From Octopus vulgaris (lineage: Eukaryota), in contig OX597835.1 in the NCBI GenBank assembly GCA_951406725.2, positions 36,208,001 through 36,272,000 of the forward strand: DNA of 64,000 bases, read 5' to 3'. Shown here piece by piece: positions 279 to 55,545 of this stretch (position 1 is the stretch's first letter; the number at the start of each line of letters is the position of its first letter). The translations under genes and the position numbers were made by a program. Under the pieces are notes generated by a model that made no database searches, had not been told where the DNA came from, and worked only from the letters and a program-made list of their open reading frames with translations.

Positions 279-328
<50 letters not shown>

Positions 329-448
329 ACAATCAAGGAACGGCCATAATAGGCCATTCACCCACTAGAAATAACAGCCAAAAGCTTTAACCGCAAAATA
401 ACGTCAATTCCGTAAACCAGGAGAAAATTGAAAAACATTTACCCTGTA

Positions 449-555
449 ATTTCTTAGACGATGCACCGTTTCATCTTCTGTTTAATGGAAAACTAACCTG
501 ATTAAATTAAATCAAGCCAATCTACCATAGGCCCTTAGATTCATCAGTAAGAAAT
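449..555 (-). ncRNA. Type I hammerhead ribozyme, copy L1
   Basis: Reverse complement of the motif at 2416-2522; predicted cleavage between 457 and 456 on the minus strand. Confidence 0.85.
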
Positions 556-943
556 AGCCAAACCGGAACAGATATTTTTCACGAGGCATTCTCATTGCTA
601 CCTCGTCAATATCTGACCTAAAATTTTCAAATCGTCGCACTCGCGCCAAATTTATCGGCAGCAAATAAATATAAGCCGCCGATTCCATTACGGAATTAAC
701 CAGAAAATTCATAATTAATCAATATAGGGTGGCAAAAAAAAAAATTTTGTAGAATTCTTTTGCCACCAGCGGCCTAGTGGGAAAAAATTAAATAGTCATA
801 AACCATTTTTAAGTTCAACATCAACAATCAAGGAACGGCCATAATAGGCCATTCACCCACTAGAAATAACAGCCAAAAGCTTTAACCGCAAAATAACGTC
901 AATTCCGTAAACCAGGAGAAAATTGAAAAACATTTACCCTGTA

Positions 944-1050
944 ATTTCTTAGACGATGCACCGTTTCATCTTCTGTTTAATGGAAAACTAACCTGATTAA
1001 ATTAAATCAAGCCAATCTACCATAGGCCCTTAGATTCATCAGTAAGAAAT
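944..1050 (-). ncRNA. Type I hammerhead ribozyme, copy L2
   Basis: Identical to L1, offset +495. Confidence 0.85.
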
Positions 1051-1438
1051 AGCCAAACCGGAACAGATATTTTTCACGAGGCATTCTCATTGCTACCTCG
1101 TCAATATCTGACCTAAAATTTTCAAATCGTCGCACTCGCGCCAAATTTATCGGCAGCAAATAAATATAAGCCGCCGATTCCATTACGGAATTAACCAGAA
1201 AATTCATAATTAATCAATATAGGGTGGCAAAAAAAAAAATTTTGTAGAATTCTTTTGCCACCAGCGGCCTAGTGGGAAAAAATTAAATAGTCATAAACCA
1301 TTTTTAAGTTCAACATCAACAATCAAGGAACGGCCATAATAGGCCATTCACCCACTAGAAATAACAGCCAAAAGCTTTAACCGCAAAATAACGTCAATTC
1401 CGTAAACCAGGAGAAAATTGAAAAACATTTACCCTGTA

Positions 1439-1545
1439 ATTTCTTAGACGATGCACCGTTTCATCTTCTGTTTAATGGAAAACTAACCTGATTAAATTAA
1501 ATCAAGCCAATCTACCATAGGCCCTTAGATTCATCAGTAAGAAAT
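1439..1545 (-). ncRNA. Type I hammerhead ribozyme, copy L3
   Basis: Identical to L1, offset +990. Confidence 0.85.
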
Positions 1546-1932
1546 AGCCAAACCGGAACAGATATTTTTCACGAGGCATTCTCATTGCTACCTCGTCAAT
1601 ATCTGACCTAAAATTTTCAAATCGTCGCACTCGCGCCAAATTTATCGGCAGCAAATAAATATAAGCCGCCGATTCCATTACGGAATTAACCAGAAAATTC
1701 ATAATTAATCAATATAGGGTGGCAAAAAAAAAATTTTGTAGAATTCTTTTGCCACCAGCGGCCTAGTGGGAAAAAATTAAATAGTCATAAACCATTTTTA
1801 AGTTCAACATCAACAATCAAGGAACGGCCATAATAGGCCATTCACCCACTAGAAATAACAGCCAAAAGCTTTAACCGCAAAATAACGTCAATTCCGTAAA
1901 CCAGGAGAAAATTGAAAAACATTTACCCTGTA

Positions 1933-2039
1933 ATTTCTTAGACGATGCACCGTTTCATCTTCTGTTTAATGGAAAACTAACCTGATTAAATTAAATCAAG
2001 CCAATCTACCATAGGCCCTTAGATTCATCAGTAAGAAAT
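1933..2039 (-). ncRNA. Type I hammerhead ribozyme, copy L4
   Basis: Identical to L1; lies 8 nt inside the inversion junction. Confidence 0.85.
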
Positions 2040-2415
2040 AGCCAAACGGAATTGACGTTATTACGGAATTGACGTTATTTTGCGGTTAAAGCTTTTGGCT
2101 GTTATTTCTAGTGGGTGAATGGCCTATTATGGCCGTTCCTTGATTGTTGATGTTGAACTTAAAAATGGTTTATGACTATTTAATTTTTTCCCACTAGGCC
2201 GCTGGTGGCAAAAGAATTCTACAAAATTTTTTTTTTTGCCACCCTATATTGATTAATTATGAATTTTCTGGTTAATTCCGTAATGGAATCGGCGGCTTAT
2301 ATTTATTTGCTGCCGATAAATTTGGCGCGAGTGCGACGATTTGAAAATTTTAGGTCAGATATTGACGAGGTAGCAATGAGAATGCCTCGTGAAAAATATC
2401 TGTTCCGGTTTGGCT

Positions 2416-2522
2416 ATTTCTTACTGATGAATCTAAGGGCCTATGGTAGATTGGCTTGATTTAATTTAATCAGGTTAGTTTTCCATTAAACAGAAGATGA
2501 AACGGTGCATCGTCTAAGAAAT
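2416..2522 (+). ncRNA. Type I hammerhead ribozyme, copy R1
   Basis: Stem I ATTTCTTA (2416-2423) pairs with TAAGAAAT (2515-2522). Core CTGATGA at 2424-2430. Stem II ATCT (2431-2434)/AGAT (2495-2498) closes a long hairpin. GAAA at 2499-2502. Stem III ACGG/TCGT has a palindromic TGCA loop. GTC triplet, cleavage predicted after 2514. Confidence 0.9.
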
Positions 2523-2910
2523 TACAGGGTAAATGTTTTTCAATTTTCTCCTGGTTTACGGAATTGACGTTATTTTGCGGTTAAAGCTTTTGGCTGTTAT
2601 TTCTAGTGGGTGAATGGCCTATTATGGCCGTTCCTTGATTGTTGATGTTGAACTTAAAAATGGTTTATGACTATTTAATTTTTTCCCACTAGGCCGCTGG
2701 TGGCAAAAGAATTCTACAAAATTTTTTTTTTTGCCACCCTATATTGATTAATTATGAATTTTCTGGTTAATTCCGTAATGGAATCGGCGGCTTATATTTA
2801 TTTGCTGCCGATAAATTTGGCGCGAGTGCGACGATTTGAAAATTTTAGGTCAGATATTGACGAGGTAGCAATGAGAATGCCTCGTGAAAAATATCTGTTC
2901 CGGTTTGGCT

Positions 2911-3017
2911 ATTTCTTACTGATGAATCTAAGGGCCTATGGTAGATTGGCTTGATTTAATTTAATCAGGTTAGTTTTCCATTAAACAGAAGATGAAACGG
3001 TGCATCGTCTAAGAAAT
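2911..3017 (+). ncRNA. Type I hammerhead ribozyme, copy R2
   Basis: Identical to R1; cleavage predicted after 3009. Confidence 0.85.
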
Positions 3018-3406
3018 TACAGGGTAAATGTTTTTCAATTTTCTCCTGGTTTACGGAATTGACGTTATTTTGCGGTTAAAGCTTTTGGCTGTTATTTCTA
3101 GTGGGTGAATGGCCTATTATGGCCGTTCCTTGATTGTTGATGTTGAACTTAAAAATGGTTTATGACTATTTAATTTTTTCCCACTAGGCCGCTGGTGGCA
3201 AAATAATTCTACAAAATTTTTTTTTTTTGCCACCCTATATTGATTAATTATGAATTTTCTGGTTAATTCCGTAATGGAATCGGCGGCTTATATTTATTTG
3301 CTGCCGATAAATTTGGCGCGAGTGCGACGATTTGAAAATTTTAGGTCAGATATTGACGAGGTAGCAATGAGAATGCCTCGTGAAAAATATCTGTTCCGGT
3401 TTGGCT

Positions 3407-3513
3407 ATTTCTTACTGATGAATCTAAGGGCCTATGGTAGATTGGCTTGATTTAATTTAATCAGGTTAGTTTTCCATTAAACAGAAGATGAAACGGTGCA
3501 TCGTCTAAGAAAT
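3407..3513 (+). ncRNA. Type I hammerhead ribozyme, copy R3
   Basis: Identical to R1; cleavage predicted after 3505. Confidence 0.85.
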
Positions 3514-3736
3514 TACAGGGTAAATGTTTTTCAATTTTCTCCTGGTTTACGGAATTGACGTTATTTTGCGGTTAAAGCTTTTGGCTGTTATTTCTAGTGG
3601 GTGAATGGCCTATTATGGCCGTTCCTTGATTGTTGATGTTGAACTTAAAAATGGTTTATGACTATTTAATTTTTTCCCACTAGGCCGCTGGTGGCAAAAG
3701 AATTCTACAAAATTTTTTTTTGCCACCCTATATTGA

Positions 3737-3808
<72 letters not shown>

Positions 3809-30246: not shown

Positions 30247-30302
<56 letters not shown>

Positions 30303-30346
30303 ATGTGCGTGGATGCATATTATTATATATATATATATATATATAT

Positions 30347-31444
30347 ATCATCAACTCCTTCACCTGCACCTCCAGCAATATTATCTATTGCGTCTCTTGC
30401 TCTCTCTGCCATTCCCTGTACATCGGACAAACGGGACGCCGCTTGGATGACCGGTTCGCGGAACACCTCCGTGACATCCGCCTTGCCAACGACACACCGG
30501 TCTCACGCCATTTCCGCTCCACCGGTCACTCCTTGCAACACCTGTCTGTGTTCGGTTTGTCCTTGCACAGAGGCCATCCGGATTCCCGTTTGCGCCGTGA
30601 ACAGGAATTAATCTTCTCTCTTCGCTCTTTTACGCCATTTGGTCTCAACTCTCCCCCTCCTCATCTAACCCCCTCTCCCCCCTCCTCATCTAACCTCCCC
30701 CCGACCCCTACTTCTCTTCAGTACTTCATCCTTTCACCCCTACTCCTCTTCCCTTCTTCCCTTCTTCCCTCTTCCCCTTCCCTCTTTCTCTCTGCTCCCT
30801 CACTCCCCTTCTCTCTCTCTCCCCCCTCTCCCTCTATCCTCCCTCCTCCTCTTCCCTCCTCTTCTCCTCTCCTTCCTTCTCCCCCTTCTCTCCCCTCCTC
30901 TTCTCCTCTCCTTCCTTCTCCCCCTACCCCTCCTCTTCTCCCCTTTCCTTCTCCCCTCTTCTCCTCTTTCTTTCTCCCCCTCCCCCTTACCCCCTCTTCC
31001 CTCATCTCCTCTCTCTACACTACACCATACGACTTTACACATCACATCATATATACATACACACGTCCAGACCTCTCATACGCACTAATACTCTCTCATA
31101 CACACACACACACTCTTATGTTGGGGCGAGGTCATTTAACCCTATTATCTCCCCTAATTTCGCTCTTGCGTCTCACGTTTGATCTTTGACTTCTGGCCGA
31201 AATCAGATCGCCATGTTGATTCGCTAGCCTCTGCACGCATTTTTTTCTCTCCTTCTTTCTGTGTTTCTTTCTGTGTATCATTCTGTTGAAGAGCGTAGGC
31301 TCGAAACGTTAAAGACTTGTTTTATTTATATTCCTGAGCGCCATACTAATGCAATTGTTTGTTTGTATTCCACCTGCCCTCGTCTTTTGTTTATTTCCGT
31401 AAACCTGCCTTCATCTTTTGTCTATTTTCATAAAGCTTCCCGTT
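30347..31444 (+). mobile_element. Penelope-like retroelement, 5'-truncated (GIY-YIG endonuclease plus 3' terminus)
   Basis: FTCTSSNIIYCVSCSLCHSLYIGQTGRRLDDRFAEH...VSRHF...RREQELIFSLRSFTPFGLN is a Penelope-type GIY-YIG domain with CCHH residues. The 3' part has a hammerhead-like motif at 31283-31310. Both ends lie in (TA)n. Confidence 0.9.
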
Positions 31445-31539
31445 ATATATATGTATATATACATATATATAAACATGTGCGTGGATGCATATTATTATAT
31501 ACATATATAGACATATTTACGTATTAGAATGTATATATA

Positions 31540-34164: not shown

Positions 34165-34330
34165 ATATATATTGTTGAAATTTATAGAAAGGACTAAGTC
34201 GAAAACAGGTGCAGAAACAACAAACAAGTGTTTTAGTTTGACGCTCTTGAAAAATGGAGAAGTCATTTATGTTTCGAGCCTACGCTCTTCGACAGAGGAA
34301 ATAAATAGAGAGGGAATGAGGAAAATTTAT
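34165..34330 (-). mobile_element. Penelope-like 3' terminus fragment
   Basis: Contains the reverse complement of ctgtcgaagagcgtaggctcgaaac, as at 31283. Confidence 0.7.
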
Positions 34331-40413: not shown

Positions 40414-42834
40414 GCAAAACATGAGAAAGAGAGAAAAGGAAGATGCAAGGGAATAGACGTGGAGCGAACGAAACGTTAAGGAGATGGAAACAGGAAAAAG
40501 AAAAAAATGGAATAAAAGGGAAGGAATATGGAATGAGGACAGTACCAAAGAAAAAAAAGAAAGAATGAATGAATATAATAGAAGAGAGCAATGATACATA
40601 ATTAAATGGTTGAAATAATAGCAATAACAATGATGCTGATGATATCAATAAAGAGAACAGTAGAATAATATTACTATAAATGTTATTAATCTTTCTATAG
40701 GAATTGTAACCTGATCAGAAGGGAGAACACAATTAAAGAAAAAGCTTAGCTATAAGACGAAAATGGTGGACTTTCTAGAACGATTTCTGAGTCGTTCGGA
40801 AGAGGGTGGGGGATAATAGCAACGAGAGGGTTGGGTGAGAGTTATTTGGAATAAATAGAGGGAAAGAGTTGTCATATCCTTTTGTCACCGGTTTACATTA
40901 TAATCCGGCAGAATTCATTTCATCACTCTGTTTATTTTGGCTTGGTTTTCTTATGAATTTTCCCCGTTTCTTATATATGCTTTTGTATTTGTTTTTTTTT
41001 ATATATTTTTTTTCCCTTTATTGATCACTTAACTAATCATGATCGTAGCAAAGTGGAGGGAAGGGTGCTGCAAAAGTACCTGGTTCTTGACTCTTGCTAG
41101 AAATAACAGCTAAGAGCTCTCTCTCTCTCTCTCTCACTCTCTATCTCTCTTTTCAACTCACAATGTTAACGTTCTTTTAGTAAAACCAAATCGTACAAAC
41201 AAACACACCAACAGAAATAAAAACAAAGAACCGGAAGTAGATATTGGATAAAGAAGTCAAAGTAAAACTATGTTCATTGAGCGATGGATGTTTTTGATCA
41301 TAGGCCTGTTTGCTCGATAAGTGCTACTGACCTGGGGCTAAACAGTAGCAATCTCACCAAAGCCGAAAATGCAGCGAACATGTCTTCTTCTCTCCTCTTT
41401 TACTTTTGTTTTAGTTTAGTTTTTTTCTTGTTATTGTTTTGGTTTTCTTTATTCATTTACGAATATATTTCTCTTTGATGTCATACCTTACGTTCTTGTC
41501 ATTTCCTATCACTATCTCTCTCTCCCTCTCTCCTTTTTCTCTCTATGTCTCTCTCTCTCTGTTTCGAGACACCTCTCTTTCCCTCAACTTTCTATCTCAC
41601 TCTGAAGCTCTCTGAAGCTCAATCTGTCTTCCTCTCTCTCTTTCTCTTTCACTATCTCTCATCCTATTCTCTATATCTCTCTAGGATTTTCTCTCTCTCA
41701 CTCTTTGCTACTTTCTCTCTCTTTCTCTCTGCTACTTTCTCTCTCTCACTCTCTCTCTCTTTCATTCTATTCTCTGCCTTTCTAAGACATTCTCTCTCTC
41801 ACACCCTCTACCACTTTCTATCTCTTTCTAAGGCACTCCCTTCCTCATCCTTTCTCTCTCTTTCTCTCGCTCTCTCGCTCTCTCTCTCACTCTCTCTCTC
41901 TCACTCTCTCTCTCTCACTCTCTCTCTCTCACTCTCTCTCTCTCACTCTCTCTCTCTCACTCTCTCTCTCTCACTCTCTCTCTCATTCCCGCTCTCTCTC
42001 TCTCTTTCTCTCTCTCTCTTTCTATGGCACTATCCCATTCTCTGTCTCTCTCAACAGCACACTTCCGCTCTCTATTTCTCTCTCCCTTTCTCTTCCTTCT
42101 CTTTCGCTCTAAGATACATTATCTTTCAATGTTTTTCGACAACTCCTTATAGTATGACACGGAAATGTACTCTATCTCTAGAGTACACGAGACTATGATA
42201 GACGAGGGTTCGATGTTTCGAATCCTGTCACTGGTACTGTGTAGCTAGTATGGAGAAGACTCGTGAATTTCAAATGGTCCCAATATAAACACTACAATGG
42301 TGGAAGTCGCCGTTGCTGTCTAGCTTCATATCTTTCCTCGTCAAGAAACAGACCAATGATTAAAAGCATTCCAGCTATGGCCATACCATAGCAATACATA
42401 TTAACAAAAATATATTCATAAAAAAAAGAAATTCGGAGAAAAACAAATTGTTCAGAAGACGATTTGATCCAAAACATATTAGTTATTTCTCTCTATCTCT
42501 TTTTTCTATCTCTCTCTCTCTTTCTCTCTCTCATTCTCTCTCTCTCTCTCTTTATCTATCTATATCTCTAATTCTCTCTCTATCGCACTTTCTTTCCCTC
42601 TCTATCTGTCTTTATCTCTCTTTCTTTCTCTCTGTCTCTTTCTCTCTCTTCCTCTCTTTCTTTCTCTCTCTCTCTCTCTCTTTCTCTCTCGAAAGCATTC
42701 TCTCTTTCTGCCGTGTAAATTAACAGATCGACAGATGAAAATCGGTTAGATATGAAAGAGATCCATGTATATATTCATATGTGTGTGTGTGTGTGTGTGT
42801 GTGTTTGTGTGTGTGTGTATGTATGTATGTATGT

Positions 42835-43225
42835 AAACCAAAAAAGAGGTATAAGGACTTGCTGAAGGCTTCCTTGAGAGATGCTTGCATCTCTCCTAAC
42901 ACATGGGAAGGCATAGCTACGGATCGAAGCAGGTGGAGAAGGATTGTGCATGAAGGGACAGCCACGTTTGAGAAATCTCGAGTTGCACATGAGAAAGTAA
43001 GGAGGGATGTCAGGAAGGGCATCGCTGTTACACTTCCAGAATGGAAGGGTCTTCCTTTGATTCTGACATGCAATGTCTGTGCAAGACCCTGCCTCGGTAA
43101 AGCTGGACTCATGAGTCATCTTCGTAGTCATAAAACGAAACAGATGAGTGACAACCTGGCCACTGGTGGTGGTGTAACACACCATACTAATCATATCTGT
43201 CGGGCATGTGGAAGAGAGTGTAATT
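42835..43225 (+). mobile_element. RTE-clade LINE C-terminal ORF fragment with C2H2-type zinc finger
   Basis: KPKKRYKDLLKASL...WEGIATDRSRWRRIVHEG...CNVCARPCLGKAGLMSHLRSH...CRACGREC is typical of RTE/BovB-like ORF ends. Confidence 0.85.
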
Positions 43226-43861
43226 CAGCAGTTTACAACTACAGCCGACTATTACCAGTAAAGGTTTTAGTTGCCAATTTTGTACAAGACATTGTAGATC
43301 TTTAGCTGGGCTAAAAAGTCACATTCGATCACAGCACCAGTAACAGTTAAGCTTCGTGCAATGGCCATACTCGATAACGAGGGGGCAGCCATAATATATA
43401 TATATAGCTATATATATGCATGTATATTCACATATATACATACATACATATATATATACGAATGTATGTACATACATACATACATACATACATACATACA
43501 TACATACATACATACATACATACATACATACATACATACATACATACATACATACATACATACATAGGTATGACGGTGCAAATAGGAAAATTAGAACTCA
43601 AAATATGAGCGTATGTGTATTTTTATTAAAATTTAGCAGAAGTAACAGAGTGACGCCATCGAAAATTACTTCCAGGATTGGATGACCGCTGTACTAATGC
43701 GTGGATCCGTAGACCCCTTTCAGTGAGGGACAATGCTATCGGTGATACTGATGTTGCTGCGTTAAGTAGAATTTCTTCAAATTCGTATCAATACTCAGTT
43801 GAAAGTCCATTTTTCTAAACAAGAGTTTCCGACATTTTGGGCGAAACTGAAGGACGAATTT

Positions 43862-50404: not shown

Positions 50405-50602
50405 AAAGGGAAAGTTTACGAAAATAAACAAAAGACGAAGGCAGATGGTGTACAAACAAACAAATGTATTAGTATAGCGGTCAGGAATTCTTTTACGTTT
50501 CGAGCCTACGCTCTTCTACAGAAAGATACACAGAAAAAAAAACAAGGAGAAAAACGAGGAGAGAAAAAAATGTGTGTAGTCGCTAACGATCTATCATGGC
50601 GT
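50405..50602 (-). mobile_element. Penelope-like 3' terminus fragment
   Basis: Reverse complement of the 31200-31444 and 55315-55545 terminus, including ctgtagaagagcgtaggctcgaaacgt; microsatellites on both sides. Confidence 0.8.
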
Positions 50603-50607
50603 CTATA

Positions 50608-55314: not shown

Positions 55315-55545
55315 GACCCTTCTGTCCGAGTCAGTCGCCAAAATATATCGTTAGACACTACACAAATTTTTTTTCTCTCCTTGTTTCTCTCCTTGTTTTT
55401 TCTGTGTCGCTTTCTGTAGAAGAGCGTAGGCTCGAAACGTAAAAGACTTTTACTATTCCTGAGCGTTATACTAATACATCTGTTTGTTTTGTACACCACC
55501 CGTCTTCGTCTTTTGTTTTGTTTTTTTTCGTAAACTCTCCCTACA
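55315..55545 (+). mobile_element. Penelope-like 3' terminus fragment
   Basis: Same terminus as 31190-31444, with ctgtagaagagcgtaggctcgaaacgt at 55414-55440. Confidence 0.8.

Follow-up and report, generated by a model that had tools for sequence, protein, structure and literature searches.

How does a short non-coding repeat come to lie in a genome as two tandem arrays that point away from each other, each with its ribozyme-sense 3′ end set against a simple (TA)n tract? The question is raised by positions 284–3773 of a 64,000-nucleotide (nt) stretch of Octopus vulgaris DNA, here termed the window (GenBank assembly GCA_951406725.2, contig OX597835.1, positions 36,208,001–36,272,000 of the forward strand). 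The two arrays, or arms, consist of a 495-nt unit with a predicted hammerhead ribozyme. The best explanation, with a probability of about 0.7, is that the locus is a young insertion of a hammerhead retrozyme whose arms were primed at two fixed sites of the unit, A and B, by a Penelope-like reverse transcriptase (RT)-endonuclease (EN). That the family is a retrozyme mobilised by a Penelope-like element (PLE) is very probable, and priming at two sites is highly likely. Statements about published systems refer to the parts of each source that were consulted.

The repeat unit and its predicted ribozyme

The unit is 495 nt in length, has a GC content of 36% and is repeated in tandem. It has no open reading frame (ORF) of its own; the sole frame of at least 120 amino acids that touches the array extends through flanking repeats. 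The window arrays are 99.8–99.9% identical to the reference unit, and the insertion is therefore considered very young.

In a motif scan each unit of the window proved to carry a type I hammerhead motif, seven copies in all. The predicted structure has an 8-bp stem I, the CUGAUGA core, a long stem II, GAAA, and a minimal stem III with a palindromic loop. Across loci, stem I is paired at 8/8 positions in 115 of 125 hammerheads, and the loop-3 palindrome is preserved via a double change. The core differs at position 7 only (T 84, A 28, C 9, G 4), the rest of it having been fixed by the search pattern in this count. An Rfam scan of the window gave no match at the gathering threshold, the predicted hammerhead included. 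Compared with shuffled sequences, folding gives a z score of −6.1 for the whole unit and −1.45 for the isolated hammerhead fold.

As a dispersed, multi-copy, non-coding tandem unit of a few hundred bases with low GC content and one type I hammerhead motif each, the family has the properties of the animal retrozymes without long terminal repeats (non-LTR retrozymes), for which integration templated by circular RNA and mobilised by PLEs has been proposed (Cervera and de la Pena, 2020; PMC7229834). At 495 nt the unit exceeds the 150–450 nt given there and lies inside the range of 51–972 nt in a recent preprint (Li, Clavereau and Pollet, 2026; 10.64898/2026.07.22.740005). Divergent two-armed insertions, fixed A and B ends and (TA)n targeting are found here and are not described in the parts of PMC7229834 or of the preprint that were consulted; the term ‘inverted’ has 0 occurrences in the main text of PMC7229834, whose model is in supplementary Fig. 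S9. Judged by titles and the beginnings of abstracts, supplements not being covered, no literature was found on two-armed, fixed-end retrozyme insertions or on a counted rule of one A and one B end. The parts are known separately: retrozymes, the inverted copy and tail of PLEs, and two-strand priming in L1.

Two fixed outer ends and a (TA)n target

The unit family has 1,176 candidates in the same genome (40 scored) and 2,512 exact junction matches. The loci examined number 118: the window locus and the 39 top matches, which were picked without regard to their ends (the 40 unanchored loci); 40 loci anchored by an exact B end, the first listed on C1; 36 anchored by an exact A end, on C1–C3; and two hand-picked as possible A+A cases. 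Left out of the counts of two-armed loci and of inner ends are L053 (two adjacent insertions), L068 (fragments), L122 (rearranged left side) and L177 (compound, edge-cut). Concordance between arms was assessed in 79 single-piece A+B loci, with L178 also left out. Positions in the unit are given as phases, phase 1 being the base after the predicted hammerhead cut (window 2515).

The divergent layout proposed in the original prediction, with the ribozyme sense on the minus strand at left and the plus strand at right so that both sense 3′ ends adjoin (TA)n, is confirmed in the window and holds for all 92 loci that have both orientations: 91 are ‘−+’ and one is ‘−+−+’. The remaining 26 of the 118 loci have a single detectable orientation, and none is convergent. 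Seven of these 26, in which BLAST detects one orientation, conceal a short second arm that ends at the opposite site. Among the first 100 of the 2,512 junction matches, counted by eye, 15 of 15 mixed-strand clusters are divergent.

The outer ends lie at two fixed sites of the unit, A at phase ~132 and B at phases 234–241. One A and one B end are found in 85 of 89 two-armed loci by script and in 87 of 89 after inspection, which showed L063 and L163 to be A+B with an internal deletion. L069 combines B with a non-canonical end at phase 112, and the only A+A insertion found is the hand-picked L178 (2514–3490). Genome-wide, the exact junction string of site A with TA occurs 247 times and that of site B with TA 750 times, with 0 for reversed-pattern controls; the lower count for A is at least partly due to common sequence variants of that site. 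The arm-end sequences quoted earlier for the window locus are correct, and both ends carry AT microhomology to the target. They had been read as arbitrary phases of the unit, which was taken to argue for a circular template; that argument fails because the termini are fixed.

Sites A and B have a common TTGATT-N4-AT/G pattern, each 13–17 nt 3′ of a predicted hairpin (window 2599–2755, phases ~85–241). The pattern is possibly a common recognition element.

Site A is on the left in 46 of 88 two-armed loci (hand-picked loci left out), about half, as expected for a symmetric target. Arm lengths are another matter. The arms of the window locus are similar in length, as had been pointed out, but this is a coincidence and not a general property: lengths lie within 10% of each other in only 3 of 85 A+B loci, with a median ratio of 2.1. 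Likewise, the ~3.5 rounds per arm that were inferred hold for the window locus (3.48 and 3.40 units) and are specific to it.

Targeting of (TA)n is borne out by the census. Of the 40 unanchored loci, 38 have (TA)4 within 25 nt of each of their two ends; the window background is 12% per end. A target-site duplication is indiscernible inside (TA)n; the one flank duplication, direct and ~126 bp long, is at L178. The family consists of dispersed short arrays, as anticipated, and not of long satellite blocks.

These data bear on whether the arrays are satellite DNA spread by unequal crossover or other DNA-level mechanisms, or an artefact of assembly. Some DNA turnover does take place after insertion, as variants of period two (L039, L055) and arm-to-arm copying (L231) indicate. 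Against such an origin stand the spread of the loci over at least 16 chromosome-scale contigs, their distinct flanks, their fixed ends, their divergent polarity, their (TA)n targets and a matching footprint in a protein-coding PLE, and it can hardly be credited.

A matching footprint in a Penelope-like element

The insertions display PLE-type features, namely a head-to-head inverted 5′-truncated copy, a one-sided tail and a preference for (TA)n. PLEs have been described as forming partial tandems, with an adjacent inverted 5′-truncated copy and a 30–40 bp tail that is often one-sided, and the Hydra and Naiad PLEs target (TA)n; the origin of the tandem and inverted insertions and of the one-sided tails is called undefined in the same work (Craig et al., 2021; PMC8557442). 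The inverted copy, the tail at one end and the (TA)n target are thus shared with endonuclease-containing (EN+) PLEs of the Hydra clade. The present family differs from these in that it has no ORF, that its short unit is copied for up to 10 turns, and that its one-end rule is nearly strict and has been counted.

The original prediction looked to PLEs for the RT and endonuclease and suggested a comparison with the full-length elements of the genome. That comparison is informative. A Hydra-type PLE, with 727-amino-acid frames containing RWK, DKT and CxCx5C motifs, has 19,161 candidates, and many copies are 100% identical in the probed part; the family is young. It has two 3′ ends ~71 nt apart. 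Twenty neighbour pairs were fetched from the match list, with divergent polarity selected and end type unselected; 18 of 18 scorable pairs have one short and one long end. The Hydra-type family therefore follows the same two-end geometry as the retrozyme. Copies at L180:5539–10000 and at L181–L230 have a 3,355-nt period and intact 727-amino-acid frames and lie inserted in the (TA)n at the 3′ end of a Neptune-like copy.

PLEs as the source of the enzyme are thus supported, but not the family present in the window, since the geometry matches the Hydra type, for which there is no blastn or tblastn match in the window. The partner enzyme is deduced from geometry and age only, and the Hydra clade is the favoured, if not secure, assignment. 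Fragments of Hydra-like families at L053, L055, L112 and L117 (about 37–67% amino-acid identity to the young one) are candidates for the true partner.

The GIY-YIG element of the window (30350–31443) is a 5′-truncated PLE with a minimal hammerhead at 31283 and 15,671 family candidates. It is Neptune-like by its linker motif, and the RT was confirmed in a relative at L180. A direct repeat of ~57 bp (30272–30328 and 31444–31500) bounds it and may be a long target-site duplication. Minimal hammerhead motifs are also present in short terminal pieces of PLEs at 50414–50604 (−), 55319–55518 (+), 34206–34296 (−) and 26705 (+); three of the four pieces are 77–79% like the element at 30350, and no inverted partner is seen in the stretches read. 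The inverted termini that had been attributed to the PLEs of the window are thus absent from the pieces examined. The Neptune-like family was rejected as a geometric match: of 30 copies, 27 have a resolved 5′ end and none of these 27 has an inverted arm of its own, and there is one 3′ end in copies where it was read.

The unit itself was also considered as a PLE. It was rejected as an autonomous element, as it has no ORF for RT and GIY-YIG, and as a pLTR-derived non-autonomous one, as it has no homology to the terminal repeats of the two families compared.

Independent work on PAc, a Poseidon element, provides a biochemical parallel. In vitro both target strands are cut and extended, the protein is a predicted dimer, and RT initiates at two internal positions that delimit the tail (Frangieh et al., 2024; PMC11167929). 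This is the same two-strand cutting and extension from two start sites as would be required here, and priming from both target strands, as first proposed for the window locus, is judged supported. The PAc experiments used a linear template and gave no reads ending at the ribozyme site; in octopus some insertions do end near the cleavage site.

Twin or dual priming by L1 is another precedent, where two target strands prime two complementary DNAs (cDNAs) and an inverted pair results (Meyer et al., 2010; PMC2837659). However, L1 primes on the poly(A) tail and at an internal site, and its product has an internal deletion. L1 twin priming was rejected for the present family, which has no poly(A), has two fixed sites, and has arms that overlap over whole units.

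Circle, cut line or multimer

What was the template? Arms cross up to 11 ribozyme junctions and reach 10.4 units, though the mean run length is less than two units, and all 307 internal junctions matched by pattern are without insertion or deletion. Variants are more telling. In the 79 A+B loci, 16 variants private to a locus are fixed, in both arms, in all units that cover the position, and 108 are confined to one unit, 64 of these with an in-register partner unit that does not have the variant. Only two, at a single site next to a homopolymer, are common in register to both arms. The opposite pattern would be expected had a multimer been transcribed from an aged donor, which argues for a monomer circle. 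Going by the sequences, such a circle is the probable template of the long arms, and the template at the window locus was likely a circle. The circular template first proposed is thus upheld for multi-unit arms by variants and junctions and not by end phases, and the appearance of some insertions suggests instead that linear RNA was copied after cleavage.

Alternatively, the same PLE enzyme might have made the long arms on a linear multimer that was transcribed from an array already present and had remained uncleaved. Ribozyme cleavage is dispensable for PLE insertion in vitro (PMC11167929), eight of nine Xenopus retrozyme dimers failed to cleave in vitro (preprint 10.64898/2026.07.22.740005), and the 6 of 78 arms that stop near the cleavage site after one junction (p = 0.055) would fit partly cleaved dimers. 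Donor variants would then be expected in register in both arms, and the two seen are set against 16 private fixed ones and 64 whose partner does not carry the variant; arms of up to 10.4 units are likewise difficult to reconcile with the short mean run. A multimer template is considered improbable.

A monomer circle does not account for all insertions. Inner ends cluster 5–30 nt 3′ of the predicted cleavage site. At the first approach 26 of 162 arms stop at phases 1–30, five times the background hazard (p ~ 1e-8); in later rounds 6 of 78 and then 1 of 100 do so. In anchored loci alone the numbers are 22 of 78 for the first approach and 3 of 32 later. The stop is common to both arms of a locus (table 24/1/1/11, p = 1.6e-7). 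In the 11 loci where both arms stop, the farther arm ends 5–13 nt from the predicted cut and never beyond it, and later-round double stops are found in 0 of 16 loci at risk. The simplest reading of this class would be run-off at the 5′ end of a ribozyme-cut linear RNA. A separate clade of both-stop loci was rejected, as their haplotypes are shared with read-through loci.

Contigs of four runs guessed as RNA cover all 29 bins of the unit and join end to start; RNA and DNA, and circle and tandem, are indistinguishable in such data, which count neither way. At L039 and L055 variants recur every second unit in one arm, which suggests either later block duplication or a dimer template. Equal inner phases at L037 and L058 were rejected as proof of ‘lapping’ on a circle; both are at short palindromes.

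A possible single template molecule for both arms

The arms of a locus agree at 1,532 of 1,535 diagnostic comparisons, and the partner arm is unbeaten as the closest in 45 of 51 loci. In the young set they agree in 168 of 168, where ~40 mismatches are expected from independent draws. In 9 of 68 other loci the inner phases are within 10 nt of each other (2.9 expected, p = 0.002), and in six of those nine the difference in arm length equals the tail; it is as if both enzymes had halted at one RNA position. This raises the question of whether both cDNAs came from a single RNA molecule, the least certain step of the scheme and one on which we would give even odds. If so, strand displacement would be needed, because the B cDNA passes through site A.

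Coinciding inner phases would also arise if one primed cDNA folded back and primed itself, with the endonuclease resolving the product at a second fixed site. Self-priming has been proposed for Penelope, where the inverted copy is also described (Arkhipova et al., 2013; PMC3846280), the nine loci would resemble the central palindromes of that work, and Craig et al. attribute the tail to EN-mediated resolution (PMC8557442). Yet inner phases are unrelated in the other 59 of the 68 loci (389 and 42 in the window), read-through loci show no correlation between the lengths of their two arms (rho 0.04, n = 62), and the longer arm can be either one (35 versus 44). In addition, two RT start sites have been observed directly in vitro (PMC11167929). 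Fold-back is therefore quite unlikely.

Proposed mechanism

A scheme can be put forward on the basis of these findings. The divergent layout, the fixed ends with their A+B pairing, the preference for (TA)n and the parallel in an autonomous PLE are observed; the enzyme, the cleavage, the circle and the common template are deduced. The RT-EN of a PLE, probably Hydra-type, would nick (TA)n on both strands; one 3′ end would pair with site A and the other with site B, over 1–4 nt of AT in each case. Both cDNAs would extend to a random stop, or to the RNA 5′ end if the RNA is cut. The template would be a ligated monomer circle for multi-unit arms and a ribozyme-cut linear RNA where both arms stop before the cleavage site. 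The two cDNA 3′ ends would then be joined centrally by microhomology or short templated fill-in, and the second strands would be completed.

The central junctions are in keeping with such joining. At least 2 nt of microhomology is present in 27 of 41 blunt or overlapping inner junctions (null 18%), a figure that may be inflated as it relies on BLAST ends, and inserts of at least 5 nt occur in 25 of 79 inner junctions, by BLAST ends as well. The junctions of L152, L155, L159, L171 and L127 contain AT-rich fillers of 18–35 nt that are reshuffled copies of adjacent arm ends, and which we take to resemble the templated insertions of end-joining repair. At L034 (6844–6884), 41 nt of unrelated sequence separates the inner end of a single B arm from (TA)n.

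A more specific and tentative picture, to which we lean somewhat less than to its opposite, is that an RT-EN dimer holds one RNA at two preset, unequal sites, each primed by one cut strand, that two strand-displacing polymerases move on a circle, and that the insertions record whether the RNA was a circle or a cut line. If this reading is true, the tail and the inversion of PLEs are one obligatory reaction, and the family would count as genomic evidence that rolling-circle reverse transcription takes place in the germline of an animal. Exact start-site coordinates and a target are available for the family, as are distinct predicted products for circular and cut RNA and, from the same genome, a candidate for an active enzyme family.

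Observations that weigh against the scheme

Several observations weigh against the proposed scheme and should be pointed out together. With respect to the single template, arms copied from two molecules would agree to a similar degree if both molecules came from one donor or if a single donor dominates in each cell. L231 holds a 1.26-kb inverted stretch that is 99.3% identical between its arms, compared with ~96% for other unit pairs, and the stretch includes flank DNA; copying between arms therefore occurs at the DNA level, and arm-to-arm conversion is likely here. This locus (L231:4397–9223, L177 refetched) has B and A outer ends and a chimeric junction with ~27 nt of its own right flank once per arm. 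At L151 the A arm carries a 254-nt deletion twice and the B arm is of full length. The deleted A-arm sub-units (L151:4923–5491) are 241 nt long and do not contain site B; a mini-circle, a repeated RT skip or later DNA slippage could have produced them.

The different structures of the L151 arms and the possibility of a dominant donor would suit dual priming on two RNAs, one per subunit, from one donor pool, or end-to-end jumping of RT on a linear monomer; dual priming has been proposed for L1 (PMC2837659). Against these, the cleavage-site stop is common to both arms within single haplotypes, the junctions are uniformly free of insertions and deletions, and the stop rate near the junction drops with each round, where jumping should fail at a constant rate. 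Two RNAs or jumping is unlikely, although it deserves to be kept in mind, and a single RNA is retained in the scheme as the uncertain step that it is.

With respect to the enzyme, the tail is ~109 nt here and 30–40 in EN+ PLEs (PMC8557442). PAc in vitro exhibits no difference in start site between strands, whereas sites A and B pair unequally in octopus, and no homology between target and RNA is reported for it, whereas both ends have AT microhomology here (PMC11167929). The unit has no significant similarity to the Hydra-type terminal region (best E 0.52) and no match to the PLE pieces of the window. Divergent Hydra-like relatives with about 31–67% amino-acid identity exist, and the partner is thus only inferred.

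With respect to sampling, the 40 unanchored loci are skewed to long, young arrays, and in the 76 end-anchored loci one end was set by selection. The drop in stop rate in the anchored loci alone has only p = 0.044. In addition, the stop cluster is found almost only in older subfamilies that have an AT palindrome at phases ~24–31, and the palindrome could favour joining there. The one-armed loci L102 and L172, which end at phases 7–9 against (TA)n, speak against the palindrome account.

Layout of the window locus

Table 1. Features of the two-armed insertion, in window coordinates. All hammerheads are predictions from the motif scan.
Feature	Position	Strand	Remarks
Left (TA)n target	284..326		21.5 copies; last AT common to the arm end
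Left arm	325..2047	−	3.48 units, with the ribozyme sense on minus; reaches fixed site A (phase 132) at its outer, sense-3′ end and phase 389 at its inner end
Four minus-strand hammerheads	449..2039	−	Cores begin at 547, 1042, 1537 and 2031
Central junction	2046..2079	+	Right-arm start duplicated in tandem over 17 nt; short microhomology
Right arm	2061..3744	+	3.40 units; reaches phase 42 at its inner end and fixed site B (phase 241) at its outer end
Plus-strand hammerhead 1	2416..2522	+	Predicted type I; predicted cut after 2514
Plus-strand hammerhead 2	2911..3017	+	Predicted cut after 3009
Plus-strand hammerhead 3	3407..3513	+	Predicted cut after 3505
A-to-B interval	3638..3744	+	~109 nt in the reference unit; at right end only; counterpart of the PLE ‘tail’ (compare PMC8557442, Fig. 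2 legend)
Right (TA)n target	3742..3773		16 copies, then (AG)n

The 17-nt duplication at the central junction is likely to have arisen by slippage and re-priming during end joining. Elsewhere in the window, a frame of 188 amino acids is present at 42739–43305; with its zinc-finger-like motifs, we take it to resemble a LINE ORF2 in its C-terminal portion.

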